Shown here in pieces: positions 5,515-41,782 of a stretch of DNA of 64,000 nucleotides. Within the stretch, counting starts at the first letter, position 1; every line of letters begins with the position of its first letter. Below the pieces are notes generated by a model, which had not been told where the DNA came from, searched no databases, and was given only the letters and a program-made list of their open reading frames with translations. Origin of the DNA: Candidatus Omnitrophota bacterium. GTDB taxonomy: Bacteria; Omnitrophota; Omnitrophia; Omnitrophales; Aquincolibacteriaceae. A program made the translations under genes and the position numbers. The stretch covers positions 16,437-80,436 of the forward strand of contig JAFGHI010000025.1 in assembly GCA_016930235.1 (NCBI GenBank), in the 5' to 3' direction.

Positions 5515-6327
5515 TCATGTCACCATAAATCCAAAGATAAAAATCGATGCCTGAACTGCGCGCACAAACGCTACGGACTCATGAATCTTAATCCTTTCCC
5601 GCATTTCAACCAAAGCGCTCACAACGGACCATATCGAAAAAACAATTGCGAGTTCAAAAAAGACCGGCTTTAAAAATGCCGGACTCATGAGAAACAAAAG
5701 GAAATCCTGAAACCCTTCAATATGGTGTATCGCCACCCCCAGACGCCCGACCTTTAAAAAAGGCAGTGAATATCCGTAAAGCTTCGAAGAAAAAGGCCAA
5801 AACAAAGGCACACCATAAGCGCTGAACATATCGAGAATCACGTGGGTGGAATAAGCCAAGAAGCTGAGAGCGAAGAGACGTAGCTCCTGTGACTTTTCTC
5901 GTATAAATTTTGAAATTCGAATCTCGAAACTCGAAACAAATCCGAATAAATCAAATCCTAATATCGAAACGGTTCTTTTGGAAGCAAGCCTATTCGCCAA
6001 ACTCCGGCATTTTTTATTATTGCCTTCTTCGGATTTCTGATTTGCTTCGAAATTCGGATTTCGGATTTCGGATTTAAGGCTCTTGACAAAGTGATATCCC
6101 CCTACAATCATGAAGGCTACGATGAAAGCAGCCGCCAGACTATGGGAAGGTCCTCGGTGAAACCGTGCTGCCTGTTGGATGAAAAGCCCGGGGAGAAAAT
6201 CAAAATCGGCTAGAGCGGCGAGCAGGACAAAAAAGAGAAGGTAGGGCCATCTCGTTTTCCGGTCCTTTTGTTTTGCAAAACAATAAACCGAATAACCCGC
6301 AAACGAATGTATCACCGGTAATGGCAT
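5515..6327 (-). CDS. DUF457/YdjM-type membrane-bound metal-dependent hydrolase carrying an in-frame ~190-nt repeat-element insertion
   Basis: HRGPSHSL and YSTHVILDMFSAYGVPLFWP match the YdjM motifs HRGFTHSL and YLSHILADM..GVPLLWP. The protein is 270 aa versus about 190 aa expected for the family. The extra ~63 residues (EIRNPNFEANQ...FIREKSQE) are encoded exactly by the family-1 repeat at 5883-6075. Confidence 0.7.
   Translation of the reverse strand: MPLPVIHSFAGYSVYCFAKQKDRKTRWPYLLFFVLLAALADFDFLPGLFIQQAARFHRGPSHSLAAAFIVAFMIVGGYHFVKSLKSEIRNPNFEANQKSEEGNNKKCRSLANRLASKRTVSILGFDLFGFVSSFEIRISKFIREKSQELRLFALSFLAYSTHVILDMFSAYGVPLFWPFSSKLYGYSLPFLKVGRLGVAIHHIEGFQDFLLFLMSPAFLKPVFFELAIVFSIWSVVSALVEMRERIKIHESVAFVRAVQASIFIFGFMVT
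5883..6075. mobile_element. Family-1 inverted-repeat miniature element, copy A, inserted in-frame inside the DUF457 gene
   Basis: Left arm gaaattcgaatctcgaaactcgaaacaaatccgaata... and right arm ...cttcgaaattcggatttcggatttcggattt are inverted copies of the cgaaat/tcggattt heptamer arrays seen at 6985, 8212, 10845 and 41617. Confidence 0.6.
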
Positions 6328-6333
6328 AGCGCA

Positions 6334-6792
6334 TCATACCCCCCGAAAAGGTTCGTGAGACGATGAACTCGTCCCGCTCAGAACCGGTGATTCGGAGAAA
6401 CGGCGAGACGGCGATTTAATGACCCACTTATCCGCACTTTCTATCATCATGACAATTTGACCCATGATACGATCCGTTTCCTCTTCAAGATGTTCTGCCT
6501 CTTCCTTTGTAATATAATTACATCTCCTTGCGATTTCAGACCATACTTGTGTTTCGCAAGCTTCTGTCTCAGCATCGCTGAGCTTACTTATGAATGCCGC
6601 TTTATACCGGCGCTTCCGCCAAGCTTCTGCCAAGTTTGAACAAACCGACCTCGAAGACCTTTTCATTTGATCCGTCAAAGAATATTTTTCCTCACTCGGA
6701 AATCTCTTCGTTATTCGAAATATTTCCATTGCCATATTCATTGCACGATCATAAACATTAAGCTCTTTATAACTCGATATTATCTTCCCCAT
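6334..6792 (-). CDS. Four-helix-bundle protein (TIGR02436, '23S rRNA intervening-sequence protein' family), copy 1
   Basis: LTDQMKRSSRSVCSNLAEAW matches the family core QLxRAAxSIxxNIAEG, and ETEACETQVWSEIARRCNYI matches the C-terminal helix. About 30 aa C-terminal extension. Its stop is 6 nt from the DUF457 start. Confidence 0.8.
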   Translation of the reverse strand: MGKIISSYKELNVYDRAMNMAMEIFRITKRFPSEEKYSLTDQMKRSSRSVCSNLAEAWRKRRYKAAFISKLSDAETEACETQVWSEIARRCNYITKEEAEHLEEETDRIMGQIVMMIESADKWVIKSPSRRFSESPVLSGTSSSSHEPFRGV

Positions 6793-6799
6793 CTCTTTT

Positions 6800-6960
6800 C
6801 CCGTTGCGCCGCTTCTCCGTCTCTCCGGCTCACCCGCTCTCGTCTCTCGCCCCTTGCCCCTGCTCTTTCACCGGTTCTTCGTTTCGCCTACCCCCGTCTC
6901 GTGTCTCTCGCCCCTTGCACCTGCTCTTGCCCCTGCCCCCTTAGGGAATCATTTCTTGAG
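6800..6960. repeat. CT-rich imperfect tandem direct repeat, two copies about 58 bp apart, core ctctcgccccttgc(c/a)cctgctctt
   Basis: Read directly: ccgctctcgtctctcgccccttgcccctgctctt at about 6832-6866 and ccgtctcgtgtctctcgccccttgcacctgctctt at about 6890-6925. Confidence 0.6.
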
Positions 6961-6984
6961 AACTAAGAACACGACCTCTTATAA

Positions 6985-7170
6985 ATCCGAATCCCGAAAT
7001 CCTAAGCACGAAACAAATTCGAATATCGAAATTCAAACAAAACCAAACTCTTCATTATCTTAAACACACATTGCATTTCTTTGCTTTTTTCTTTGCCGCA
7101 ATGTTTTATATTTATCTTTCTTATTTCTGATTTCGATATTGCTTCGGATTTCGATATTCGTATTTCGAAT
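6985..7170. mobile_element. Family-1 miniature element, copy B (arms plus about 90-bp spacer; internal-deletion derivative)
   Basis: Left arm atccgaatcccgaaatcctaagcacgaaacaaattcgaatatcgaaattcaaacaaaacc and right arm ttatttctgatttcgatattgcttcggatttcgatattcgtatttcgaattt. The spacer reverse complement reads ttgcggcaaagaaaaaagcaaag..., a degraded 4HB start (MAA.KK..). The right end abuts the BY-kinase stop codon at 7171. Confidence 0.6.
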
Positions 7171-8157
7171 TTACAGCCTTTGTTCCGTGTTCTTAGTCCT
7201 TTCTTTCTTCAGCACTGCCTTTTCCCACCAGCCCTGGAACCGCTCTTCCATATCCTTCAAATTAAAGCCGGCCCGCTTAAAATGATAATGAGCACGGTTG
7301 CGGCCCTCATCACTATATTCATCGTAATAGTTGTAATAGCGGTAGTCGGGCGATGAAAACTCCACATTGGTAAGAACATAACCAAGCATCTTGGCCCCGG
7401 CCTGTTTGAATAAAACCTGGGCATGAGAAATGACACTCTTGGGCGTCCTTCCGACCTGGATCACGAATAAAACACCATCCACCTCTTTGCCCAAGATTCC
7501 GGCATCCGCCACGGACATGATCGGAGGCGAATCAATGATGATGTAATCAAAGTGATGACGAAGTTCCCGTATGAAATACTGCAGCTTTGAAGAGCTCACA
7601 AGTTCGGCGGATTTCCGGGTCGCTTCCCCTCTCGGGATAATCACAAGATTCTTTAAGGAATTCTTGCACATAACCTGCTTTGGATTCAAATCCTCACGAA
7701 GCAGCTCAGTCAGTCCCTTCTTCTTGTCACCAAAACCCATATAATCGGAAATGTTCCCGCGTCTCAAGTCGGCATCAATCAAGGCCACTCGCGCTTCGCC
7801 GTTCTCGGCCAGAGAAAGAGCCAAGTTTGTCGCGGTCACCGTCTTCCCCTCTGAGTGAATGGAACTGGAAACGAGAATCACTTGTGCCTGCTGTTTCGTC
7901 AGCTGCGCCTTCAAGGAGGTGCGAAACATCCTGTATTGCTCGGCCAGCATGGAGTCCGGAAACCTTAGCATGATCAACCGACTGTCCGGGTTTGTATTTT
8001 TAATTGTCGTAATCCCACGCTCAAAAGATGAAACATTGTCAACGGCTTCATCTTCATGTGCCGGAAGTCGCAACCCCGGACTGCCATCAGAACCAGCGGC
8101 TTTCGCCTGGTCCCTTTCCTCTTGTAGTTTTTCAAGTGCTTTCGTGTATTTACTCAT
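7171..8157 (-). CDS. BY-family protein tyrosine kinase (CpsD/EpsG-like cytoplasmic ATPase, separate from the co-polymerase)
   Basis: Walker A HSEGKT, Walker A' ALIDADLRRG, Walker B DYIIIDSPP, and a C-terminal tyrosine cluster YRYYNYYDEY. 328 aa. Confidence 0.85.
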   Translation of the reverse strand: MSKYTKALEKLQEERDQAKAAGSDGSPGLRLPAHEDEAVDNVSSFERGITTIKNTNPDSRLIMLRFPDSMLAEQYRMFRTSLKAQLTKQQAQVILVSSSIHSEGKTVTATNLALSLAENGEARVALIDADLRRGNISDYMGFGDKKKGLTELLREDLNPKQVMCKNSLKNLVIIPRGEATRKSAELVSSSKLQYFIRELRHHFDYIIIDSPPIMSVADAGILGKEVDGVLFVIQVGRTPKSVISHAQVLFKQAGAKMLGYVLTNVEFSSPDYRYYNYYDEYSDEGRNRAHYHFKRAGFNLKDMEERFQGWWEKAVLKKERTKNTEQRL

Positions 8158-8211: not shown

Positions 8212-8748
8212 TTAAATACGAATCTCGAAACTCGAAATCCGAAACAAATTCGAATATCGAAATACAAATAAAACAAATAACACTAAAACAATACTCGCTT
8301 GTTCCTTCAGATTGACTTTCGTACAATAGAACCGAAAATGTTCATCAATTCCGTCGATTCTTGAATCAATGACTGCACTTCTTTTTCTAAACCGTTCGTA
8401 CAAACGCCCTCCAAAAGTCGAAGCCAATAACGGCTTTCTTTTGCCTCTTTCCTGCAGATCGTGATACGCATGCCAAAATCTTTTTTCCCTAACGACTCGT
8501 TGGCTTCGATATAGTTTGCGCCAACAGAGCCGGAGGCCCTCAATAACTGTCGCATATCATCCTGCACAATCCAGGACTTGTTCGCCTTCGATAATAGATC
8601 GCGCACTTGTACGGCAAATTTATAAGTCCGTTCCTCTAAATCGTATTTCTTTTCTTTTTTATCCGCTGCCATAACGATTTCGTTTTCTCTTTCTTATTTC
8701 GAATTTCGAAATTCCTTCGGATTTCGTGATTCGGATTTCGTATTTTCT
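8212..8748. mobile_element. Family-1 composite element, copy C: inverted heptamer-repeat arms flanking an intact four-helix-bundle gene
   Basis: Left arm 8212-8285 (cgaatctcgaaactcgaaatccgaaacaaattcgaatatcgaaatacaaataaaac) and right arm 8690-8748 (ttatttcgaatttcgaaattccttcggatttcgtgattcggatttcg) are inverted relative to each other and enclose ORF 8307..8672. Confidence 0.6.
8307..8672 (-). CDS. Four-helix-bundle protein (TIGR02436 family), copy 2, carried inside the family-1 element
   Basis: 121 aa. DDMRQLLRASGSVGANYIEANE and KDFGMRITICRKEAKESRYWLRLL match the family's two conserved helices. Confidence 0.85.
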   Translation of the reverse strand: MAADKKEKKYDLEERTYKFAVQVRDLLSKANKSWIVQDDMRQLLRASGSVGANYIEANESLGKKDFGMRITICRKEAKESRYWLRLLEGVCTNGLEKEVQSLIQESTELMNIFGSIVRKSI

Positions 8749-8767: not shown

Positions 8768-9586
8768 TTATCCGTGTCGAATCGTCGTCATGGCATCGCG
8801 TACGATCGCCTCATCGATTTTCTTGGTTTCGGCGATATAGCCCGCCAGGAGCGAATGATCACACAGATTATTAATCACTCGCGGGATCCCTTTGGTGAAT
8901 TCATAAATCAATCGATAAGATCCTTCCGGAAAAAGCCCCGAATAATCTTCGCCGTTGAGCTTGGCATGGTTTAAGCGATGGACGATGTAATTCTTCGTGT
9001 CTTCCGGACTTAACGCATTCAGATGATACTGAATCGATATCCTTTGTTTTAACTGGGCCAAACTCGACAACTCAAGCTTTCTTCGCAGTTCCGGCTGGCC
9101 CAACAAGATAATTTGGATCAATTTCTCCTTTTCGGTCTCTAAGTTTGAGAGCATTCTTACCTCTTCGAGGCAGGCCGGGCTCAGGTTCTGTGCTTCGTCG
9201 ATCATGAGAACCACATTCTGGTCGGAAGCCATCTGCTCTAAAAGATAATTATTGAGCTGAATCAGTAACTTATCTTTTGAACCATTCCGGTAATGGATGC
9301 CCAAATCTTCCATGATGAGCGTCAGAATACCTTTCGGACTTATCGTCGTATTGGTCACCAGCGCTGTTTTTACATCGCGGTCCAACTTCCGTAAAAGCGT
9401 CCGTGCAATGGTTGTTTTACCGGCACCCACTTCGCCGGTAATCACCACAAAACCCTTTCGCTGCCGAATCGCAAAGAGAAGCGCATCCAGGGCCGTTTTA
9501 TGTCCCAAGGATTCAAAGAAAAAACCTGAATCGGGCGTCTGGTTGAATGGATTTTCCTTAAATCCAAAAAATTTGTTATACACCAC
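8768..9586 (-). CDS. ExeA-like AAA ATPase (putative secretion ATPase of the EPS/PEP-CTERM locus type)
   Basis: 272 aa. P-loop VITGEVGAGKTTIARTLL, and DEAQNL as the Walker B region. Its position between the co-polymerase and the BY-kinase matches the known PEP-CTERM-locus arrangement. Confidence 0.75.
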   Translation of the reverse strand: MVYNKFFGFKENPFNQTPDSGFFFESLGHKTALDALLFAIRQRKGFVVITGEVGAGKTTIARTLLRKLDRDVKTALVTNTTISPKGILTLIMEDLGIHYRNGSKDKLLIQLNNYLLEQMASDQNVVLMIDEAQNLSPACLEEVRMLSNLETEKEKLIQIILLGQPELRRKLELSSLAQLKQRISIQYHLNALSPEDTKNYIVHRLNHAKLNGEDYSGLFPEGSYRLIYEFTKGIPRVINNLCDHSLLAGYIAETKKIDEAIVRDAMTTIRHG

Positions 9587-10790
9587 TTCCGGCCTTTAAC
9601 CTTTCTCCGAGAATCAGTTCCTCGGGACGAATCGTTGCGATCGCTCCGAAAATCGGAAGATCGAGTAGATTTCTCGCCTCTTCCAGATTCCGGATCGAGT
9701 TATCGCTCAGTTCGATCAGGTAAATGATGATGAGCCCCAAGGCCACTCCGACAATCAAGCCGCCGATAAAAAAGAGTGTCTTATTGGGTTTGACGGGCTC
9801 GAGCGGCAGCCTCGCCGGTTCCAAAATCCTGAATTTTGTCCCGCTTTCCGAATCTTCCAGCGTCTGGGACATTTTTGCCGTCTCCAGTTTCTGTAAAAGC
9901 CTTTGATAGATCTCGGCATTGACCGCATAATTTCTCTGCAGTTTCGCCAATTGCTGTTCCTGATAGGGCACGCTCGAGACCATTTTAGCGTATTGTTCGG
10001 GCTTGATTTCCAAGCCTTGGACTTCAGCCTGCGCCAAGAAAGCATCGCGCTGCTGTTCCAACTGGCCGATCATATTACGGACCTGAATCACACGCGGATG
10101 GGCCTCGGTGTTATCCACCAGCAGCTGATTCAATTCCATTTTTAAAGCCACAAGCTGTTCGTTCAGTCTCGTCGCAATCGGCAGCGAGGACATATACACC
10201 TCACGAAACTCCCGGAGGGCATTTTCGGATTCCTCAAGCTTCACCCGGTAAGTTTCGAGTTGATCGTCAATGAAACGAATCGCGCTGTTTGCTTCAAGAT
10301 CCGCAGAGGTAATATTCCCCCCAATAATGATGTCGGCCAGCGTCTTCACAATCAGTTGGGCCTTTTTCGGGTCCGGGCCCTCGTAGGAGATCGTAATCAT
10401 GTCCGCCCCGCGGAGTTTGATATCAATCTTCTTTCTAAGATTCCGAATAAGCCGATCCCTCTGGATGGGCGTAATTGCCTTCTTATCCAACACTAATTTC
10501 TCAATCAGCAAAGTCAGCCGCTCCCAAGATAAAAGTTCCTCCCGAAGCGTACTCATCCTTGCCCTCATCGAGGGTGAAATCGCAAGCCCGCGAATCAAAG
10601 GGTTCAAAATAGTCTCGCTTTCAACCAGGAGGACGGTCTCAGCCCTATAAATTTTGGGCAGCGTAAAAGCCATCAAAAGCGCAATGACGACCGATACAAT
10701 CAGGGCACCAAAAAACCACCCTTTATGCCGGACCCCCATGTAGTAATATTCCCTCAATCTTAATGTTTGTGTCATGTTGTTTAGATTCAT
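9576..10790 (-). CDS. Polysaccharide co-polymerase (Wzz/chain-length determinant, PCP family)
   Basis: 404 aa. N-terminal TM followed by the Wzz motif (PKIYRAETVLLVE), a long coiled-coil periplasmic region, and a C-terminal TM LFFIGGLIVGVALGLIIIYLIE. Confidence 0.8.
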   Translation of the reverse strand: MNLNNMTQTLRLREYYYMGVRHKGWFFGALIVSVVIALLMAFTLPKIYRAETVLLVESETILNPLIRGLAISPSMRARMSTLREELLSWERLTLLIEKLVLDKKAITPIQRDRLIRNLRKKIDIKLRGADMITISYEGPDPKKAQLIVKTLADIIIGGNITSADLEANSAIRFIDDQLETYRVKLEESENALREFREVYMSSLPIATRLNEQLVALKMELNQLLVDNTEAHPRVIQVRNMIGQLEQQRDAFLAQAEVQGLEIKPEQYAKMVSSVPYQEQQLAKLQRNYAVNAEIYQRLLQKLETAKMSQTLEDSESGTKFRILEPARLPLEPVKPNKTLFFIGGLIVGVALGLIIIYLIELSDNSIRNLEEARNLLDLPIFGAIATIRPEELILGERLKAGSGV

Positions 10791-10844: not shown

Positions 10845-11040
10845 TAAATTCGAAATGCGAAACACGAAATCCGAAACAAATTCAAATATCGAAATTCAAA
10901 TAAAACCGAACGCTTCATTTCCTTAAATACAAACCGTATTACCTTCTTTTTTATCCACCGCCATATCGTTTTATACTTTTTCTTTTTTATTTCTAATTTC
11001 GAATTTGTTTCGTGCTTCGAAATTCGAATTTCGGATTTTC
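10845..11040. mobile_element. Family-1 miniature element, copy D (deletion derivative), directly adjacent to 4HB copy 3
   Basis: Arms cgaaatgcgaaacacgaaatccgaaacaaattcaaatatcgaaattcaaataaaacc and ttatttctaatttcgaatttgtttcgtgcttcgaaattcgaatttcggatttt. The spacer reverse complement reads ATG GCG GTG GAT AAA AAA GAA GGT... (MAVDKKEG), almost identical to the MAADKKEKK start of 4HB copy 2, then stops. Confidence 0.6.
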
Positions 11041-11064: not shown

Positions 11065-11502
11065 TCAGTGTGTCAACGCACCCTTCCAATCCGAGTGGAG
11101 CTGGGAATAAATACAATAGTTTTCATGTAAACGATGAATGCGCTTGGACAATTCCTGATAGCCTCGAGTAAGCTGATCATATTCGGTTTTTTCGATATAC
11201 CCGCAGTTCAAGGCCAGACCTAAGCACACCAGAACATGATTGGCCGCACCGCACGCGTCTCTTAAATGTCTGCGAAGGACGGTTTCACGACGTCTTTTCG
11301 CCCAGCCTTCGGCGATATGGGCAGAAACACGCCTCGAACTATTCAAAGTTTGACTAAAAAGCGTGTGCCTTTCATAGTCTGGAAATTTCCGGACACATTT
11401 AAATATCTGGCCGGCCAAAGTCATACTGATTTTGTAACTTTCCAAATCCTCGAACCCGCCGATTTCCATCTCCGATGTCAATTCACTTTCACTCGTCATC
11501 AT
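11065..11502 (-). CDS. Four-helix-bundle protein (TIGR02436 family), copy 3
   Basis: 145 aa. FSQTLNSSRRVSAHIAEGW and LRDACGAANHVLVCLGLALNCGYI match the family helices. It is more divergent than copies 1 and 2. Confidence 0.75.
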   Translation of the reverse strand: MMTSESELTSEMEIGGFEDLESYKISMTLAGQIFKCVRKFPDYERHTLFSQTLNSSRRVSAHIAEGWAKRRRETVLRRHLRDACGAANHVLVCLGLALNCGYIEKTEYDQLTRGYQELSKRIHRLHENYCIYSQLHSDWKGALTH

Positions 11503-17413: not shown

Positions 17414-17536
17414 CTAGAGAGCTCAGTCTGTGGGGGCAGAGTCACGTCTAAGCGGTCGTGATTACAGATTAGTGGGACATTATAGAGACTATTTAAGGGC
17501 TGTCAAGGGGGGTAATCGAGGAGCGCTGGGAACCGC

Positions 17537-17812
17537 GATTTGCGATTTTGGATTTTAGATTTTGGATTGCGGATTGCCCGTTTGGGCGAAAATCCGAAGT
17601 ATGAAGTTCGAGGTACGAAGTAAGAGGTAAGATGTATGAAATTTCGGATTTGGGATTTTGGATTTTAGATTTTGGATTGCGGATTGCCCGTTTGGGCGAA
17701 TTTAACCCCTCACCCTTTCCCTCTCCCCTTTGGGGAGAGGGCAGAGATGAGGTGATAAATTTGCCTAAGCGTATAATCGAAAATCCAAAATCCGCACTCC
17801 CAAATCTAAAAT
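17537..17812. repeat. Family-2 miniature element, copy E: left arm duplicated in tandem, with internal palindrome ccctctcccctttggggagaggg
   Basis: gattttggattttagattttggattgcggattgcccgtttgggcgaa occurs twice (17547-17592 and 17655-17700). The right arm at about 17776-17812 (tcgaaaatccaaaatccgcactcccaaatctaaaatgg) is inverted. A segment gaagtatgaagttcgaggtacgaagtaagaggtaag is shared with 19888-20008. Confidence 0.6.
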
Positions 17813-19887: not shown

Positions 19888-20008
19888 CCTCGAAGTATGA
19901 AAATTCCTACTTCCCGCCTCTTACTTCGTACTTCCTACCTCATACTTCCGGCTTCCTACTTCTTACCTCTTACTTCCGACTTCTTACTTCATACTTCCTA
20001 TTTCCTGC
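19888..20008. repeat. Family-2-related tandem array of tacttc(g/c)tacttcct(a/t)cct units filling the fmt-def intergenic space
   Basis: The 19888-20008 sequence is tacttcccgcctcttacttcgtacttcctacctcatacttccggcttcctacttcttacctcttacttccgacttcttacttcatacttcc. It is the reverse complement of the gaagtatgaag/gaagtacgaagta segments in family-2 arms. Confidence 0.55.
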
Positions 20009-20010
20009 CC

Positions 20011-20547
20011 TTAAAGTCTCCGTCCCTTTTCCTTCTGGATTTGTTCGTATTGGGCGAGCAACTCCTGGCGGGTCCCAAAATCCACGCGATCCACAAAAAG
20101 TTTGCCGTTCAGGTGGTCTGTCTCATGCTGAATGACGCGCGCGTAAAAATCCTTGGCCGTCATCTCGCATTTTGTTCCCTCCCGGTCATAATATCGAAGC
20201 CGAATGGATTTGGCCCGTGGGACCTTCGCCGATATATTGGGAAGACTCAAACAACCTTCGACGTCTGTCTCCTCACCCTGCATCTGATCAATCTCGGGGT
20301 TGATGACGATAATTTCTTCTCCCTGTTTCATCGTCGGGCATGCCACGAATATTTGTTTTGCAACTCCCACTTGAGTCGCCGCCAAACCGACACCATCCTC
20401 CACATACATGGTTTCGATAAGGTCCTCAATGAACTCCTGGGTTTCGGGACCAAAATCAGACACCCTTTTCGCGGTCTTCAGTAAAATCGGAGCCGGATAA
20501 ACATATATTTTTAATACAGCCATAGTTTCACGACCTCCTAAGCGCAT
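20011..20547 (-). CDS. def: Peptide deformylase
   Basis: GLAATQVGV, EGCLS and QHETDHLNG are the three Def motifs. Confidence 0.95.
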   Translation of the reverse strand: MRLGGRETMAVLKIYVYPAPILLKTAKRVSDFGPETQEFIEDLIETMYVEDGVGLAATQVGVAKQIFVACPTMKQGEEIIVINPEIDQMQGEETDVEGCLSLPNISAKVPRAKSIRLRYYDREGTKCEMTAKDFYARVIQHETDHLNGKLFVDRVDFGTRQELLAQYEQIQKEKGRRL

Positions 20548-20577: not shown

Positions 20578-22644
20578 TCATAAAATCGATAAGGGGTCCA
20601 CATCGATAGCGACTTGAACCGCTGCGGGCTTTCGCAAAGATGCAAGGCATTGACTCACTCTTCCCGCAAGTTTCATCCCTCGAGCGAATTTGATCATGAT
20701 ATGCCACCTAAAATGACCGCGTAATTTATAAAACGGCAAGGGTGAGGGGCCCACAATTTGTGCCCACTCCGATTGTCCCGGCGCGGGGTTATCCCCGCTC
20801 ATGATGCCTTGAAATTCCTTTCGCAACTGGTCCCGCAGCTCCCTTGAAAACAGATACACCTTTTTCTCCTCGCGGGAACGGACAATGATGTTCATCAGCT
20901 GGTAAGCCGGAGGATAATGGAAAAGATGCCTTTCGGGAAGTTCCTGCTTATAAAAATTTAAGTAATCGTGATTTTTTGAAAACTTAACGCTGGGATGATC
21001 AGGGGAAAACGTTTGAACATAAACGCGCCCCGGCTGACTTCCTCGGCCGGCCCGTCCGGCTACCTGCGTTAAAAGCTGAAAGGTCCTTTCGGCCGATCGA
21101 AAATCCGGAAGCATCAAACCAACATCGGCAAGGATGACTCCGACAAGGGTCACGTGGGGAAAATCAAAACCTTTCGCAATCATCTGGGTCCCGATCAGGA
21201 TATCCGAATTGCCTTCCCGAAATCCTTTCAATATTTTTTCATGAGACCCTTTCCGGCGGACACTGTCGGCATCCAAACGCGAAATACGCGCCGTGGGAAA
21301 TTGTTTTGCAACTTCGCTCTCCACTTTCTCGGTTCCAAATCCGGCAAATTTCAGCATCGGAGACTTACATTGGCCGCAAATGACCGGTACGGGCTTCTCG
21401 GCATTGCAGTAATGGCACAAAAGCGAGTTGTCCTCCTGGTGAAATGTCAGTGACACCTGGCAGGAATCGCATTGTTCGACATAACCGCACTTCGGACAGT
21501 GGATATGGGTCGAAAACCCTCTCCGGTTTAAAAGCAGCAGCGTGCCTTCCTTGGCTTTCAGATTTTTTTCAATTTCGGTGGCGAGCGGAAAGCTGAGTAT
21601 CCCTTTTTTTCTAAATGCCGGTCCGCTATTTTTTAAATCGACAATATGCACTTCCGGAAGAGGCCGGTCTTCGATCCGGCTGGTTAAATCCAAACGGACA
21701 ATTTCACCGGTCTCGGCCTTGTACATCGTCTCCAAGGAAGGCGTTGCAGATCCCAGGACCATCACTGCATTTTCATTTTGAGCGCGGAATTGGGCGACTT
21801 CTCTGGCATGATATCGTGGATTGGTCTCCTGCTTATAAGAGTTTTCATGCTCTTCATCGATAATAATCAAGCCTAAATTCGGGACCGGGGCAAAAATGGC
21901 CGAACGCGGCCCCAACACCACGCGCTTTCGTCCGCTTTCGAGACGCTTCCAAGCCAGAAACCTTTCGGTATCATTCAACTTACTGTGCAGGATTTCGAGT
22001 TCATCCCCGAAGTGATCGTGGAAAAACCTCTTAATCTGTTCGGTTAAAGCAATCTCCGGTACCAGACAGATGGCCGACTGATTCTGCTTCAAAATATCCC
22101 GGATGGCCCGAATGTAAACTTCGCTCTTCCCGCTGCCGGTGATCCCGTAGAGGAGAATGGGCTTCGGATTTTCCTCGAGGAATCCCGAACGAATGGCCTC
22201 AAGCGCCCTTTTCTGATCGTCCGTCAAATTGAAATCTTCCTTCTTTTCCCAATCAACGACTTCCGCGATGGATTCCTTCTGAAGGGCTCTCTCGGCCTTC
22301 TTGCCGTACTTCACCCAGCGCGGCAAGGCATTTTCGATCGCCTCACCCCAACTGGACCCATAATATTCAGAGATCCATTTAGTCAGCTCAAGAACTTTTC
22401 CGGACAGAACCGGCTCATCGTCAAGAATATCCTTGATGTCCTTACAAGAAATGTCATCGGCGGCTTCCTTGCGATCGACGAGATAACCAATCAATTCCCT
22501 GTTTCTGAAAGGAATCGAGACGCGAACCCCGCGCTTAATTTTGGGTTCTAGTTCAGCCGGAACCGCGTAAGTAAAAAGTCCTGTGACGGGAAGGGGTACC
22601 GCAATATCGATCAATAATTTCGTCACTTCGGTTGTTTGGGACAT
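20578..22644 (-). CDS. priA: Primosomal protein N' (replication restart helicase)
   Basis: 688 aa. Walker A GITGSGKSEVY, DEEH box, and a Cys-rich zinc region CPKCGY...CDSC...CHYC...CGQC. Confidence 0.9.
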   Translation of the reverse strand: MSQTTEVTKLLIDIAVPLPVTGLFTYAVPAELEPKIKRGVRVSIPFRNRELIGYLVDRKEAADDISCKDIKDILDDEPVLSGKVLELTKWISEYYGSSWGEAIENALPRWVKYGKKAERALQKESIAEVVDWEKKEDFNLTDDQKRALEAIRSGFLEENPKPILLYGITGSGKSEVYIRAIRDILKQNQSAICLVPEIALTEQIKRFFHDHFGDELEILHSKLNDTERFLAWKRLESGRKRVVLGPRSAIFAPVPNLGLIIIDEEHENSYKQETNPRYHAREVAQFRAQNENAVMVLGSATPSLETMYKAETGEIVRLDLTSRIEDRPLPEVHIVDLKNSGPAFRKKGILSFPLATEIEKNLKAKEGTLLLLNRRGFSTHIHCPKCGYVEQCDSCQVSLTFHQEDNSLLCHYCNAEKPVPVICGQCKSPMLKFAGFGTEKVESEVAKQFPTARISRLDADSVRRKGSHEKILKGFREGNSDILIGTQMIAKGFDFPHVTLVGVILADVGLMLPDFRSAERTFQLLTQVAGRAGRGSQPGRVYVQTFSPDHPSVKFSKNHDYLNFYKQELPERHLFHYPPAYQLMNIIVRSREEKKVYLFSRELRDQLRKEFQGIMSGDNPAPGQSEWAQIVGPSPLPFYKLRGHFRWHIMIKFARGMKLAGRVSQCLASLRKPAAVQVAIDVDPLSIL

Positions 22645-22659
22645 CCAATAGCACCTTAT

Positions 22660-22901
22660 ATTTTAGATTTCGGATTGCGGAATGCGGATTGCCCGCTTAG
22701 GCAAAAATCCGAAGTATGAAGTATGAAATGTGAAAAAAGATGAATCGTAAGTAAATGAGTCCATAGCGACTATTTTTTCGCTTTTCTCTCCTACCGCGCA
22801 CATCATATTTTTTACGTCATATTCCATGCGTCCTTCATACTTCATACCTCGTACCTCATATTTCTTTATTCAATCCAAAATCCGAATTCCAAAATCCAAA
22901 A
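22660..22901. mobile_element. Family-2 miniature inverted-repeat element, copy I, between priA and the UDG gene
   Basis: The left arm ttttagatttcggattgcggaatgcggattgcccgcttaggcaaaaatccgaagtatgaagtatg and the right arm catacttcatacctcgtacctcata...caatccaaaatccgaattccaaaatccaaaat are inverted copies. The right end abuts the UDG stop codon (22902). The 60-aa ORF inside it is probably spurious. Confidence 0.55.
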
Positions 22902-23645
22902 TTAGAGTTTCACATCGCCCAAGTTATCCATTTCCCCCTTGATCTTTTTCATATCCTCCCAGACCTTACGCTTCTCCCCGGGATTGCGCAAAAGATAAGC
23001 CGGATGGTACGTGCAAAGAACCGGAATCCCGCGGTAGTCGTGGAATCTTCCCCGCATTTGAGAAATGGACGAGCCCGTTTTGAGAAGGGCTTGTGCGGCA
23101 AATGTTCCTAAGGCACAGATGATTTTGGGTTGAATCAAATCAATGGTCCCGCTCAAAAAAGGTTCGCAATTTAAAATTTCTTCCGGCTTGGGGGTGCGGT
23201 TTCCGGGCGGACGGCAGCGCAGGCAATTCGCTATAAAAACATCCGAACGCTTGAGCCCGATCGATTCGATAATCTTCGTCAAAAGCTGTCCGGCTTTTCC
23301 CACAAAGGGCAGCCCTTGAATATCCTCATCACGGCCGGGCGCTTCCCCGACGAACATTAATTTAGCTTGAACATTGCCCGCCCCAAAAACGACTTTGTTG
23401 CGCGTCGACGCTAATTCTTCACAAGCGGTACATTTCAAGGCTTGTTCACGCAAATCGATCAGTTTTTCTCGAACACTTTTGGCTTCCGTTGAGGATTTTA
23501 CCCGAACCGGTCCGGCATCGGCTCGAACGGCTACAGGCTTCGATGCGGGGGCAAGGTAAACCTCCTCAATCCCATCCTCTTTCAGCATTTGCATAAAAAG
23601 CTTGGCTTCCGAGGTCTTAAGCGCTGTCTCCTGACTCGGGTTCAT
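22902..23645 (-). CDS. Uracil-DNA glycosylase, family 4, with an N-terminal extension
   Basis: GEAPGRDEDIQGLPFVGKAG (the family-4 GEAPG motif) and a C-terminal HPAYLLR-type segment. 4-nt overlap with the upstream GT28 gene. Confidence 0.8.
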   Translation of the reverse strand: MNPSQETALKTSEAKLFMQMLKEDGIEEVYLAPASKPVAVRADAGPVRVKSSTEAKSVREKLIDLREQALKCTACEELASTRNKVVFGAGNVQAKLMFVGEAPGRDEDIQGLPFVGKAGQLLTKIIESIGLKRSDVFIANCLRCRPPGNRTPKPEEILNCEPFLSGTIDLIQPKIICALGTFAAQALLKTGSSISQMRGRFHDYRGIPVLCTYHPAYLLRNPGEKRKVWEDMKKIKGEMDNLGDVKL

Positions 23646-27244: not shown

Positions 27245-27390
27245 CTCCTTCGTAACAGACCAAAGACCGAAGACTCAAGACAACAGACCGAATTCTAAAA
27301 AAATACCTTCATATTCAACTTTTTTAAACCCATTTAAATCTTTCTCACCAAAGTTTTTGGTCTTTAGTCTTTGGTCTCCAGTCTTCGGTC
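27245..27390. mobile_element. Family-3 miniature inverted-repeat element (gaccgaa/ttcggtc heptamer arms)
   Basis: Left arm cagaccaaagaccgaagactcaagacaacagaccgaa (27257-27293) and right arm tttggtctttagtctttggtctccagtcttcggtcttc (27350-27387) are inverted, with a spacer of about 57 bp. The element fills the gap between two genes. Confidence 0.55.
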
Positions 27391-27394
27391 TTCA

Positions 27395-28822
27395 TTAATA
27401 CGCGTTTTTAAAACCTCTTGAGGTTAACGTCATCAGTAAAATTTCAATATCAAACAAAAGAGACCAGTTTTCCATATAAAAAAGATCATACTTAATGCGT
27501 TCTTGAATGGAGGTATTTCCCCGGTAACCGTTCACCTGGGCCCAGCCCGTAATGCCCGCTTTAACCTTATGCCGTGACATATATCGGGGTATAGCTTCTC
27601 GAAATTGACTGATAAAATGCGGGCGTTCGGGACGAGGTCCGATTAAACTCATTTCGCCTTTGAGCACATTCAAAAACTGAGGCAATTCGTCAAGGTTCCA
27701 GCGCCGCAAGAAATTGCCGATCCGGGTGCGGCGAGCATCTTTGACATTGGCCCAAACCGGACCCGAATCCTTTTCTGCATCTACCCGCATCGTCCTGAAC
27801 TTGAGCAAATTAAAAACTTTTTCGTCGCGCCCCATTCTCTCCTGACTGTAGAAAATAGGACCTCCGTCATCAAGCTTAATGAGCACAATCACAAATAACC
27901 ACAAAGGGAAACTCAAAAGAAGCAAGATGGATACCGCCAGAAGATCAAAACACCGCTTGGCAAACCGATTCCAAATATCGTCCAACGGTAAAGGCCTGAA
28001 TCCGAGTAACGGGACCGTGCTAATATAATCCACGTCAACGTTGCGGGATAATAACCCGTAAAAATCGGCTCCGATTTTAAATTCGATGAATTTATCTTCG
28101 CAGGCAGCCACCAAATCGGTGATCCTTTCCCGCGTAAAACTCGTATCCAAGAGAATGACCTCGTTGGGCTTCAGATGATCAATAAAACTTTCGCATTGAT
28201 CCGAGATGCCAAGAATCGGAACCCCTTCGACATGTTTGCCGACAAGACCGGGATCCTTTGCGAGGACTCCCACGATTTCACGCCCATAATGAGGGTTGTT
28301 TTTCGCCCATTGAATGATTTGGCGCGTATTGCGATTACTCCCAAGAAGAAGGATCCGTTTAATGTCCCGCTTCTTGATTTTTCTCCTGTATTCCCATTGG
28401 ATCATGAGATAACGCGAAAAAGTCAAAATAATCCCCGAAATGACCCACAAAGTCACCAGGTAAATTCTTGAATAGGAAAAACCACGGTAAAAGAATGTCA
28501 CGGCCATTAGAATGACAACCGAAAAGGTCACCGCTTTAGAAACCAAAAAGATCTCTTCGATCCTTCGAATATGCCGGTACGTTGAATACAATCCATATTC
28601 TCTGAAGAAGTAAAGATAAACCGGAAGAATCACCATAAGCGCCTGAACATAAGGCAGGAAACTGGGGATATTTTCGCTCGAAATCCAACCCGTCACAAAC
28701 CGCACGTAATAAGCAAAAAAGACACTCGCAATCACCGCACCGCAGTCGGCAAGGACCGTCAGGAAAATAAAATGGAGTCTCTTTTCAGTTGTCGGCATCG
28801 GCCACCGGATTATCTTCCTCAA
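27395..28822 (-). CDS. Initiating polyprenyl-phosphate sugar-phosphate transferase (WbaP/EpsB-type 'bacterial sugar transferase')
   Basis: 475 aa. 4-5 N-terminal TMs, a central linker, and a C-terminal catalytic domain KRCFDLL...PIFYSQERMGRDEKVFNLLKFRTM...DELPQFLNVLKGEMSLIGPRP. Confidence 0.9.
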   Translation of the reverse strand: MRKIIRWPMPTTEKRLHFIFLTVLADCGAVIASVFFAYYVRFVTGWISSENIPSFLPYVQALMVILPVYLYFFREYGLYSTYRHIRRIEEIFLVSKAVTFSVVILMAVTFFYRGFSYSRIYLVTLWVISGIILTFSRYLMIQWEYRRKIKKRDIKRILLLGSNRNTRQIIQWAKNNPHYGREIVGVLAKDPGLVGKHVEGVPILGISDQCESFIDHLKPNEVILLDTSFTRERITDLVAACEDKFIEFKIGADFYGLLSRNVDVDYISTVPLLGFRPLPLDDIWNRFAKRCFDLLAVSILLLLSFPLWLFVIVLIKLDDGGPIFYSQERMGRDEKVFNLLKFRTMRVDAEKDSGPVWANVKDARRTRIGNFLRRWNLDELPQFLNVLKGEMSLIGPRPERPHFISQFREAIPRYMSRHKVKAGITGWAQVNGYRGNTSIQERIKYDLFYMENWSLLFDIEILLMTLTSRGFKNAY

Positions 28823-41616: not shown

Positions 41617-41782
41617 AAAATCCGAATCTCGAATTTCGAAGCACAAAACAAATACGAATATCGAAATTCAAATAAGGCAAACAAAAGATCTGTGTCCTAT
41701 GCCCTTCGTACCTTGTTTTTTTCTTTCCTATTTCGAATTTTGATATTTCTTCGAATTTCGGGATTCGCGCTTCGGATTTCCC
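41617..41782. mobile_element. Family-1 miniature element, copy G (35 kb away from the other copies)
   Basis: Arms aaaatccgaatctcgaatttcgaagcacaaaacaaatacgaatatcgaaattcaaataagg and ctatttcgaattttgatatttcttcgaatttcgggattcgcgcttcggattt. It abuts the methyltransferase stop at 41788. Confidence 0.55.

Follow-up and report, generated by a model that had tools for sequence, protein, structure and literature searches.

We analyse here a small element in a stretch of 64,000 nucleotides (the window, to which positions refer unless another locus is named) that is part of an 84-kb contig in a metagenome-assembled genome (MAG) of 'Candidatus Omnitrophica bacterium'. At 8214-8745 of the window a gene of the hb2 type, encoding a four-helix-bundle (4HB) protein, lies between two arms that are built of heptamers and are inverted copies of each other. 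As described below, this feature is a conserved cassette and not a chance match of low-complexity sequence. Its parts, in the order of the coding strand, are as follows.

8695..8745, minus strand: arm 5′ of the 4HB gene, recognised as inverted repeat, by an arm-profile match at 8747-8693 and by pairing in the RNA fold
8673..8694, minus strand: short leader from the upstream arm to the ATG, conserved in the gene-less copies 2 and 4 when these are aligned with copy 3 (copies as numbered below)
8307..8672, minus strand: gene of the hb2-type 4HB protein, 121 aa, isoelectric point (pI) 9.1, with PF05635 and TIGR02436 matches
8214..8264, minus strand: arm 3′ of the 4HB gene, recognised as inverted repeat and by arm-core and arm-profile matches

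A preliminary description of this DNA had placed the open reading frame (ORF) 8307-8672 between mutually inverted arms of about 70 and 58 bp and had reported the same arms at four other sites of the window, which our analysis confirms, the recurrence by both a motif-cluster scan and the arm profile. The longest inverted repeat (8214-8264 / 8695-8745) has 51 nt, 80% complementarity and a spacing of 430 nt, and the two strings quoted in that description are located at 8233-8263 (cgaaatccgaaacaaattcgaatatcgaaat) and 8696-8726 (atttcgaatttcgaaattccttcggatttcg); given that the heptamer-rich tracts extend past the inverted repeat, over ~8212-8290 and ~8677-8748, the arm lengths quoted there are roughly right. 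The heptamer consensus of the window arms is AAATCCG, with the upstream arm composed of degenerate heptamers (AAATACG AAATCCG AATCACG AAATCCG ...) and the downstream arm carrying the conserved core AAACAAATTCGAATATCGAAAT on the plus strand. With up to three mismatches allowed, the 22-nt arm core AAACAAATNCRAATATCGAAAT occurs six times in the window, as compared to 0.02 times expected from shuffles, and the arm profile finds exactly 10 arms (five pairs) at E < 0.002. Moreover, 12 tracts of 7-nt periodicity are present in the window, while each of the periods 4-6 and 8-11 gives 0-1. The excess of the core over the shuffles and the periodicity specific to 7 nt imply a specific repeat family rather than generic AT-rich low complexity. 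In the RNA fold of the long copy the arms pair around the ORF, with a z of −4.6.

The window hb2 protein is a bona fide member of PF05635/TIGR02436. The ORF matches PF05635 (23S_rRNA_IVP) with E of 3.9e-11 and 43.5 bits (curated cut-off 33.8) and TIGR02436 (four helix bundle protein) with E of 1.1e-16 and 61 bits (cut-off 24). The record P0001, 'four helix bundle protein [Candidatus Omnitrophica bacterium]', has the same sequence (100% identity), and a second gene of hb2 type (P0002, 84% identical) is present on the same contig outside the window. The AlphaFold model of the monomer has four helices with a predicted local distance difference test (pLDDT) value of 87.5, and the top folds that Foldseek finds for it are 2rld (TM score 0.77-0.86), 2gsc and 4dwl, the first two being pentameric folds and the third being Avd (bAvd) of a diversity-generating retroelement (DGR); the sequence also matches 2rld_A with E of 2e-10. 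Of the conserved family motif GxxRxxxSxxxNxxE (PMC3936711), the part RxxxSxxxNxxE is present in hb2 as R45-ASG-S49-VGA-N53-YI-E56, at positions invariant in the alignment, with the leading G replaced by Q. The 4HB proteins of the cassettes are basic, with pI of ~9.1-9.7.

The window contains five left/right arm pairs, all in the same orientation according to the motif-cluster scan. They are listed below, the gene-less ones without a strand.

5905..6079: copy 1, gene-less, in frame within a ydjM-like ORF at 5515-6327 (arm motif and profile)
6983..7171: copy 2, gene-less, keeping the leader and ~15 codons of the 4HB gene (alignment to copy 3)
8214-8745: copy 3, gene-bearing and full-length, with the 4HB gene on the minus strand (inverted repeat)
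10846..11039: copy 4, gene-less, with the deletion junction as in copy 2 (alignment to copies 2 and 3)
41618..41780: copy 5, gene-less (arm motif, alignment and profile)

Copies with and without the 4HB gene therefore exist in this DNA, as the preliminary description had considered, and their alignment gives the direction of the change. Copies 2 and 4 follow copy 3 through its 5′ arm and leader into the gene, where the start codon and ~15 codons are aligned, then omit ~330 nt and rejoin it at the 3′ arm; the columns that align are ~80% identical. What copy 4 retains of the beginning of the 4HB gene, ATGGCGGTGGATAAAAAAG..., is matched to ATGGCAGCGGATAAAAAAG of copy 3. Between themselves, copies 2 and 4 are 82% identical over 181 columns and colinear across one deletion junction. 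As judged from these alignments, both are internal-deletion derivatives of the gene-bearing form and not the reverse, and the common internal deletion implies that one element, once deleted, gave rise to a copy at another locus, i.e., by the same alignments, that the gene-less form has propagated after the deletion. The word 'non-autonomous' in the preliminary description finds no support, with the 4HB-bearing copy being the full-length form. Copy 1 adds ~60 aa (KSLKSEIRNP...SKFIRE) to a loop of a ydjM-like membrane hydrolase that lacks them in seven of eight homologues, and by this comparison it is an in-frame insertion into a coding gene. Another ~30-aa insertion (…GRTHGSAPT…) is seen in the same loop of the homologue P0122, so that the loop may be a hotspot of repeat insertion. 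Target-site duplications, which the preliminary description had considered as a mark common to the copies, are found neither at the five window copies, shared or for any single copy, nor at the groEL-dnaJ junctions described below.

The same cassette is present in many other genomes. A species-representative genome collection has the exact 22-nt core in 110 stretches, of which five are chance matches in coding sequence and ~105 are true elements; the matches in Bacillus, Cytobacillus and Flavobacteriales are coding sequence without arms and were rejected. The core-bearing MAGs belong to Syntrophales, Desulfobacterales, Planctomycetota, Dehalococcoidia, Omnitrophota, Patescibacteria, Verrucomicrobiota, Nitrospirota and others, and the element is also found in independent assemblies that include complete chromosomes and isolate plasmids. 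The usual layout is that of a short hairpin, with a heptamer arm, AAACAAATTCGAATATCGAAAT, TCAAATGACCAAAAC, a loop, GTTTTGGTCATTTGA and the mirrored arm; thirty such hairpins fold with 26-55 long-range pairs, 30-55 in most, and a median z of −7.7. At four loci in three phyla a close 4HB relative (E of 1e-38 to 1e-43) lies in the loop of the same arms, and the cassettes in Omnitrophota, Pirellulales and Phycisphaerae stand in unrelated gene contexts. Starting from the gene, in a metagenome set of 80 loci of hb2-type genes, inverted flanks are found at 52 of the 70 loci with enough flank, versus 1 of 159 control positions, and among 78 non-redundant loci the arm profile matches on both sides, inverted, at 58 (74%), on one side at 17 and on neither at 3. 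The cassettes reach from directly past the upstream stop codon to just short of the next start codon, and the 4HB gene is mostly co-oriented with its neighbours (44/55 upstream, 41/57 downstream). These comparisons of sequence show the arms and the 4HB gene to be a co-inherited unit in unrelated operons of many phyla. Viral contigs scanned with the arm core give a single match, itself a chance coding match, and thus phages are not an evident vector. The longer forms are 4HB-bearing only, some with an additional ORF of 255-290 aa that matches no family; a related element bearing a transposase is seen at none of ~230 loci.

It is noted that the arms disturb gene prediction. At L111/L112 (2558-4142 of these loci) the gene callers carry the 4HB ORF and the adjoining ORFs on into the arms, since the heptamer repeats have no stop in any frame; N-terminal extensions such as MKENPKSEYRNSKQIR and seeming overlaps of genes by 4 nt are the result. 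Close to the cassette of L112 there is a PDDEXK_3 gene.

The groEL-dnaJ spacer of Sedimentisphaerales/Phycisphaerae relatives, with GroEL 88-100% identical to that of the query locus L121, is found in five states.

L121-L125, GroEL ~100%: arm, 4HB gene, arm
L219, L220 and L093, GroEL 93% (L219) and 91% (L220): arm, extra ORF of 255-290 aa, 4HB gene, arm
L216, GroEL 95%: 18-nt palindrome of AAATCCGAA joined to TTCGGATTT
L217 and L218, GroEL 94%: left-arm remnant, GC-rich insert and hairpin of another heptamer
L221 and L222, GroEL 88%: 62-nt spacer without arms

The outer junctions are constant, ...GATAA/AAATCCG ... CGAATTT/TAGAA... with the slash marking the boundary. At L216 (4124-4150) the perfect 18-nt palindrome, AAATCCGAATTCGGATTT, equals the outermost heptamers of both arms joined together, and from its sequence it looks like the footprint of a palindrome-mediated deletion. 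This set of states shows, by comparison of close relatives, that the cassette has been gained, remodelled and lost at a fixed site. As to the details of single loci, at L217/L218 (4124-4297) a GC-rich palindromic insert, CCCAGCTTCGCCTACGGCTGCGCCGAGGCGAG, breaks the left-arm remnant and is followed by a hairpin of AACGTCG/AACATCA; the extra ORF between the upstream arm and the 4HB gene (L219 4279-5046, L220 4174-5046, L093 ~330-1170) has no Pfam family and, by eye, may have a PD-(D/E)XK-like D...EVK motif.

Substitution patterns show purifying selection on both the arms and the 4HB protein. Between cassettes, the ratio of non-synonymous to synonymous substitution rates (dN/dS) of the 4HB gene is 0.04-0.15 where dS is measurable, which implies that the protein is functional. 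The 85 nt 3′ of the stop codon, i.e., the arm, are 77-93% identical in pairs with saturated synonymous sites, where third codon positions are 44-59% identical, with the arm identity somewhat inflated by the alignment of repetitive sequence. By this measure the primary sequence of the arm is constrained about as strongly as non-synonymous sites, which points to sequence-specific recognition and not to base pairing alone. Compensatory changes between the arms are also seen (CG to TA or CA/TG variants), as is expected for both an RNA stem and inverted ends recognised by a protein; the Syntrophales orthologues give no covariation signal because they are too conserved.

The association of 4HB genes with inverted heptamer or octamer arms is not restricted to the hb2 subfamily. 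Thirteen of 17 sampled non-hb2 4HB genes have inverted repeat arms, their flanks being complementary to a degree that no more than 1 of 200 shuffles attains, and the tandem period is 7 in eight and 8 in five of the thirteen. Two further PF05635 genes, not of the hb2 subfamily, are present in the window, both identified by profile matches.

6334-6792, minus strand: 4HB gene of the hb1 type (second subfamily), located between copies 1 and 2
11065..11502, minus strand: hb3 4HB gene, directly beside copy 4

The hb1 gene has its own G-rich inverted arms of period 8 (6380-6413 / 6807-6840), which are similar to the arms around hb1-type genes of cyanobacterial plasmids (GCAGAGGAGCAGGGGG... on the upstream side, CCTCTGCTCCCCTGCT... 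on the downstream side); for hb3 no inverted arms of its own are detected. The C-terminal extension of the hb1 ORF is part of the downstream arm read through, and upstream of hb1 there is a 26-nt direct duplication (6842-6867 / 6903-6928). The DNA around 4HB genes of other subfamilies on plasmids has the following arms.

Nostoc flagelliforme plasmid: AATTCAA x4 upstream, TTTTGAA x4 downstream
Nostoc punctiforme plasmid: GTCGGAG x4 upstream, CGACCTC/CGACTTC x4 downstream, in ...CGACCTCCGACTTCCGACCTCCGACTT...
Planktothrix plasmid: AATCCCC and AATCGTA upstream, mirrored downstream

Arms of period 7 also surround 4HB genes of Chlorohelix, Monoglobus and Treponema. With their perfect heptamer arms, the Nostoc and Planktothrix plasmids are tractable systems. 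At the plasmid loci L223, L215, L229 and L228, 4HB genes of other subfamilies lie inside defence operons, namely between cas2 and cas1, after cas1-cas2, between hsdS and hsdR, and between a helicase and an N6-methylase gene; the PADLOC defence models match none of hb1, hb2 and hb3.

The window cassette itself stands among genes that are all on the minus strand and that by profile matches form an XrtA/PEP-CTERM exopolysaccharide operon, which bears out the protein-coding neighbourhood stated in the preliminary description. The genes nearest to the cassette are as follows.

7171-8157, minus strand: tyrosine autokinase (profile match)
8768-9586, minus strand: PEP-CTERM ATPase (profile match)
9576-10790, minus strand: chain-length determinant (profile match)

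No Rfam family is found for the arms or the region at E ≤ 1, and none, tRNA and rRNA included, reaches its gathering score in the whole window and seven related loci. It also holds that the family of 4HB ORFs known from intervening sequences (IVSs) of rRNA genes is not rRNA-specific. As a novelty this does not stand: PF05635-type proteins outside rRNA are also known as the Avd proteins of DGRs, and they have been noted inside cas operons (PMC3936711; PMC10910872). Scans for sigma-70-type promoters and terminators give numbers equal to those of shuffles, with no enrichment.

Based on these results, we propose that the element is a copy of a hairpin cassette that is intercistronic, widespread and evolutionarily mobile, composed of inverted heptamer arrays and a basic 4HB gene of the S23p/IVS-protein/Avd fold, a proposal to which we give about an even chance. 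The cassette would have no promoter of its own and would be transcribed passively with the host operon. In the transcript the arms would pair to form a ~50-bp stem enclosing the ORF, as in the 23S rRNA IVS, and by analogy with the rRNA IVS the stem would probably be cut by RNase III; the cut would set the 4HB mRNA free, with the cistrons on either side uncoupled. The iterated heptamers would be sequence-specific sites for the element's own pentameric 4HB protein, as suggested by the constraint on the arm sequence, by the iteration of the sites, by a basic fold of the pentamer type and by arms that are specific to each subfamily. The protein may then act in cis on its own arms and in trans on the gene-less copies, and the protein-repeat complex would underlie the maintenance or copying of the element. 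Given the co-inheritance, the subfamily-specific arms and the purifying selection, the 4HB gene looks like the element's own gene and not like incidental cargo. Thus, where the preliminary description saw the gene as the passenger, or effector, of a dispersed inverted-repeat element, the dispersed element is retained and the passenger is not, with arms on both sides at 58 of the 78 loci.

Several points weigh against this proposal. About one quarter of the hb2-type genes are without one or both arms. One gene-less copy is present at the same site in ten Syntrophales species, so that some copies are stable and could be useful to the host. The polarity of the arm core in the window copy is reversed relative to most cassettes: the core AAACAAAT... 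precedes the ORF in 28 cassettes and follows it in 3, and the rare polarity is that of the window copy and its gene-less derivatives, which would fit a loop inverted through recombination of one arm with the other, as far as the sequences suggest. The strand asymmetry of the predicted stability (G:U versus A:C) gives no consistent preference for the transcribed strand, and thus a purely RNA-level role is not favoured and a DNA-level role, as cruciform or hairpin, is conceivable; relative to the neighbouring genes the polarity of the arm core has a weak bias. Among the proposed steps, the binding of the heptamers by the 4HB protein, read from sequence and the structural model, and the cutting of these stems by RNase III, taken over by analogy, are putative. 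Since neither a target-site duplication nor a recombinase is found, 'mobile' here refers to comparative evidence only.

The Syntrophales copy leads to the alternative that survives best, which is that these are domesticated intercistronic RNA elements, punctuating operons (mRNA processing, stability, decoupling) in the manner of repetitive extragenic palindromes and bacterial interspersed mosaic elements (REP/BIME) or of enterobacterial repetitive intergenic consensus (ERIC) sequences, with the 4HB protein as a trans-acting RNA-binding regulator and with an ancient spread that has ended in the loss of mobility. The position of the elements exactly between the stop and start codons of co-directional genes, the conservation of one copy at the same site in ~10 species, the constraint on the arm sequence and the long predicted stems would all be expected then. 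It would not be expected, however, that the occupancy of one site, groEL-dnaJ, varies among relatives whose GroEL is 88-100% identical, that copy 1 sits in frame in a coding gene, that two loci of the window have one deletion junction, that a near-identical 22-nt core is found across phyla with unrelated flanking genes, or that the transcribed strand is not preferred. We regard this alternative as unlikely.

The reading of the preliminary description, an ordinary non-autonomous miniature inverted-repeat transposable element (MITE) with its transposase encoded elsewhere and the 4HB gene as passenger, is in our estimate improbable. The terminal inverted repeats, the small size, the many copies with gene-less versions among them and the lack of a transposase inside are all as in MITEs. 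Since no target-site duplication is seen at the window copies or the groEL-dnaJ junctions and a parent transposase-bearing element is seen at none of the related loci, the element is nevertheless not a canonical MITE, and the missing duplication and recombinase together with the palindromic footprint argue against classical cut-and-paste transposition. Nor would a passenger be found with the same arms at 74% of related loci across phyla, with different arms for different subfamilies, with gene-less copies derived from the gene-bearing one and with a protein under strong purifying selection.

Slightly less probable still is a retroelement-like route, in which a reverse transcriptase from another locus would use the 4HB protein as an Avd-like cofactor, with copying and reinsertion of the hairpin RNA. 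The fold is homologous to bAvd (4dwl), hb1 weakly matches Avd models, PHROGs included, and the element is transcribed within operons by our proposal. The Avd models PF22296, NF033474 and phrog_3206, however, do not match hb2; no template/variable repeat pair is seen; the element is absent from the viral contigs; and no reverse transcriptase stands beside any cassette examined, which argues against a DGR-like route. Finally, chance similarity of AT-rich sequence or an assembly artefact, for which one might cite the AT-rich and repetitive arms and the many hb2-related genes on short contigs, has a negligible probability, being refuted by the shuffles, the 7-nt periodicity, the colinearity of the copies through the non-repeat interior and the occurrence in independent assemblies.

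Beyond the hairpin cassette as such, we tentatively put forward a wider conjecture, which we consider rather less likely to hold than the proposal itself: the PF05635 4HB proteins may be the specificity factor of previously unrecognised transposase-less hairpin elements, whose ends are subfamily-matched inverted arrays of 7-8 nt, with the ORFs of 23S IVSs, the 4HB genes in cas, restriction-modification and other operons, and at least part of the unexplained intergenic heptamer repeats (cyanobacterial short tandemly repeated repetitive sequences, STRR, and similar ones) belonging to the same system. If true, it would give a function to a very abundant family, the hb2 subfamily having at least 8000 close relatives, of 60-68% identity, among the matches listed; the pentameric 4HB/S23p structures were solved in 2006-2007 and to our knowledge have had no known role. 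It would also tie in the origin and suspected mobility of the ORF-bearing rRNA IVSs, an idea proposed in 1993, and give a meaning to the intergenic heptamer repeats of scattered phyla. The comparative data predict that each 4HB subfamily binds its own repeat unit. In practical terms, the elements break metagenome assemblies and burden gene calls with false N-terminal extensions and in-frame insertions, and the statistical association reported between '23S rRNA IVP' and CRISPR loci may be due in part to their insertion into defence operons.

Other heptamer tracts are also present in the window. The intergenic gap 17513-17812 is filled with them and contains the unit ATTTTGGATTTTAGATTTTGGATTGCGGATTGCCCGTTTGGGCGAA twice (once more at ~22668), heptamers of the GTATGAA type at 17595-17639 and a palindrome, 17641-17678 / 17775-17812 (82%), in the orientation opposite to the five main copies. 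Between two minus-strand genes, 22640-22921 is a nested palindrome with outer arms ATTTCGGATTGCGG... / ...CCAAAATCCGAATTCC and inner arms of a second heptamer type, GAAGTATGAAGTATGAA / TTCATACTTCATACC. Solitary arrays with no partner arm nearby lie in gaps between co-directional genes at 19897-20014 and 27345-27404 (CTTCTTA/CTTCATA and GGTCTTT types).

It remains to compare the element with known systems. Among hairpin elements of 100-200 bp, the Correia elements of Neisseria, the Rickettsia palindromic elements (RPEs) and the ERIC sequences or intergenic repeat units (IRUs) are intergenic in operons and co-transcribed, with the Correia transcripts being cut by RNase III, the Correia elements having a TA target duplication and the RPEs inserting in frame in coding genes; as far as we know, none of them codes for a protein, and each is limited to a single genus or family. 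The window element resembles them as an intergenic operon hairpin, with copy 1 paralleling the RPE insertions, and differs in its heptamer-array arms, in the 4HB gene of its full-length form and in having no target duplication. The DGR Avd is like hb2 in being small and basic and in its homologous 4HB fold; unlike Avd, hb2 stays below the Avd family models and has neither a reverse transcriptase nor template/variable repeats nearby.

A literature search with the arm sequence returned unrelated primers only, and no account of repeat arms as a hallmark of the 4HB family was found in a search that is incomplete, so that a prior description is possible. Intergenic heptamer arrays have been described, and left unexplained, in Beggiatoaceae (TAACTGA), cyanobacteria and some Bacteroidetes in a paper that mentions no 4HB or 23S rRNA gene (PMC4679880). 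These STRR and Beggiatoaceae repeats are likewise tandem 7-nt units, intergenic, just upstream of start codons and scattered across phyla in a way that suggests horizontal transfer, and arrays of this kind also border the 4HB genes of cyanobacterial plasmids. They have been described mostly as direct arrays, whereas the window type consists of inverted pairs around, or derived from, a 4HB gene.

The closest relation is that with the ORF-bearing 23S IVSs of Leptospira and Coxiella burnetii, where a PF05635 ORF is looped in a long terminal-repeat stem with its sense strand in the host transcript; the terminal inverted repeats of the window element form an ORF-enclosing stem in the same way, according to the inverted repeat and the predicted fold. 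In Coxiella the 28-bp terminal stem is cut by RNase III, 2-3 tandem heptamers (GACAGAT) stand upstream of the S23p ORF, and rRNA IVSs, in some copies of which the ORF is decayed or deleted, have long been suspected to be selfish or mobile (PMC4990558). The connection with the 23S IVSs that the preliminary description drew is thus real in architecture, with the heptamers upstream of the ORF and the copies that have lost the ORF as further likenesses. PF05635 genes also occur at several insertion sites of the 16S and 23S rRNA genes of the candidate phyla radiation (CPR) (10.1101/2024.02.27.582315). Unlike the rRNA IVSs, the window element stands in a protein-coding operon, has as arms 50-70-nt arrays of a different heptamer that are conserved across phyla, and is present in its genome in several copies, with gene-less ones and one inside a coding sequence; the Coxiella stem is cut by RNase III, while for the predicted window stem such a cut is putative. 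Since it does not lie in helix 25 or 45 of a 23S rRNA gene, it is not a 23S IVS in the strict sense, and it is best filed as an IVS-type hairpin cassette in protein-coding operons, with MITE-like gene-less derivatives.

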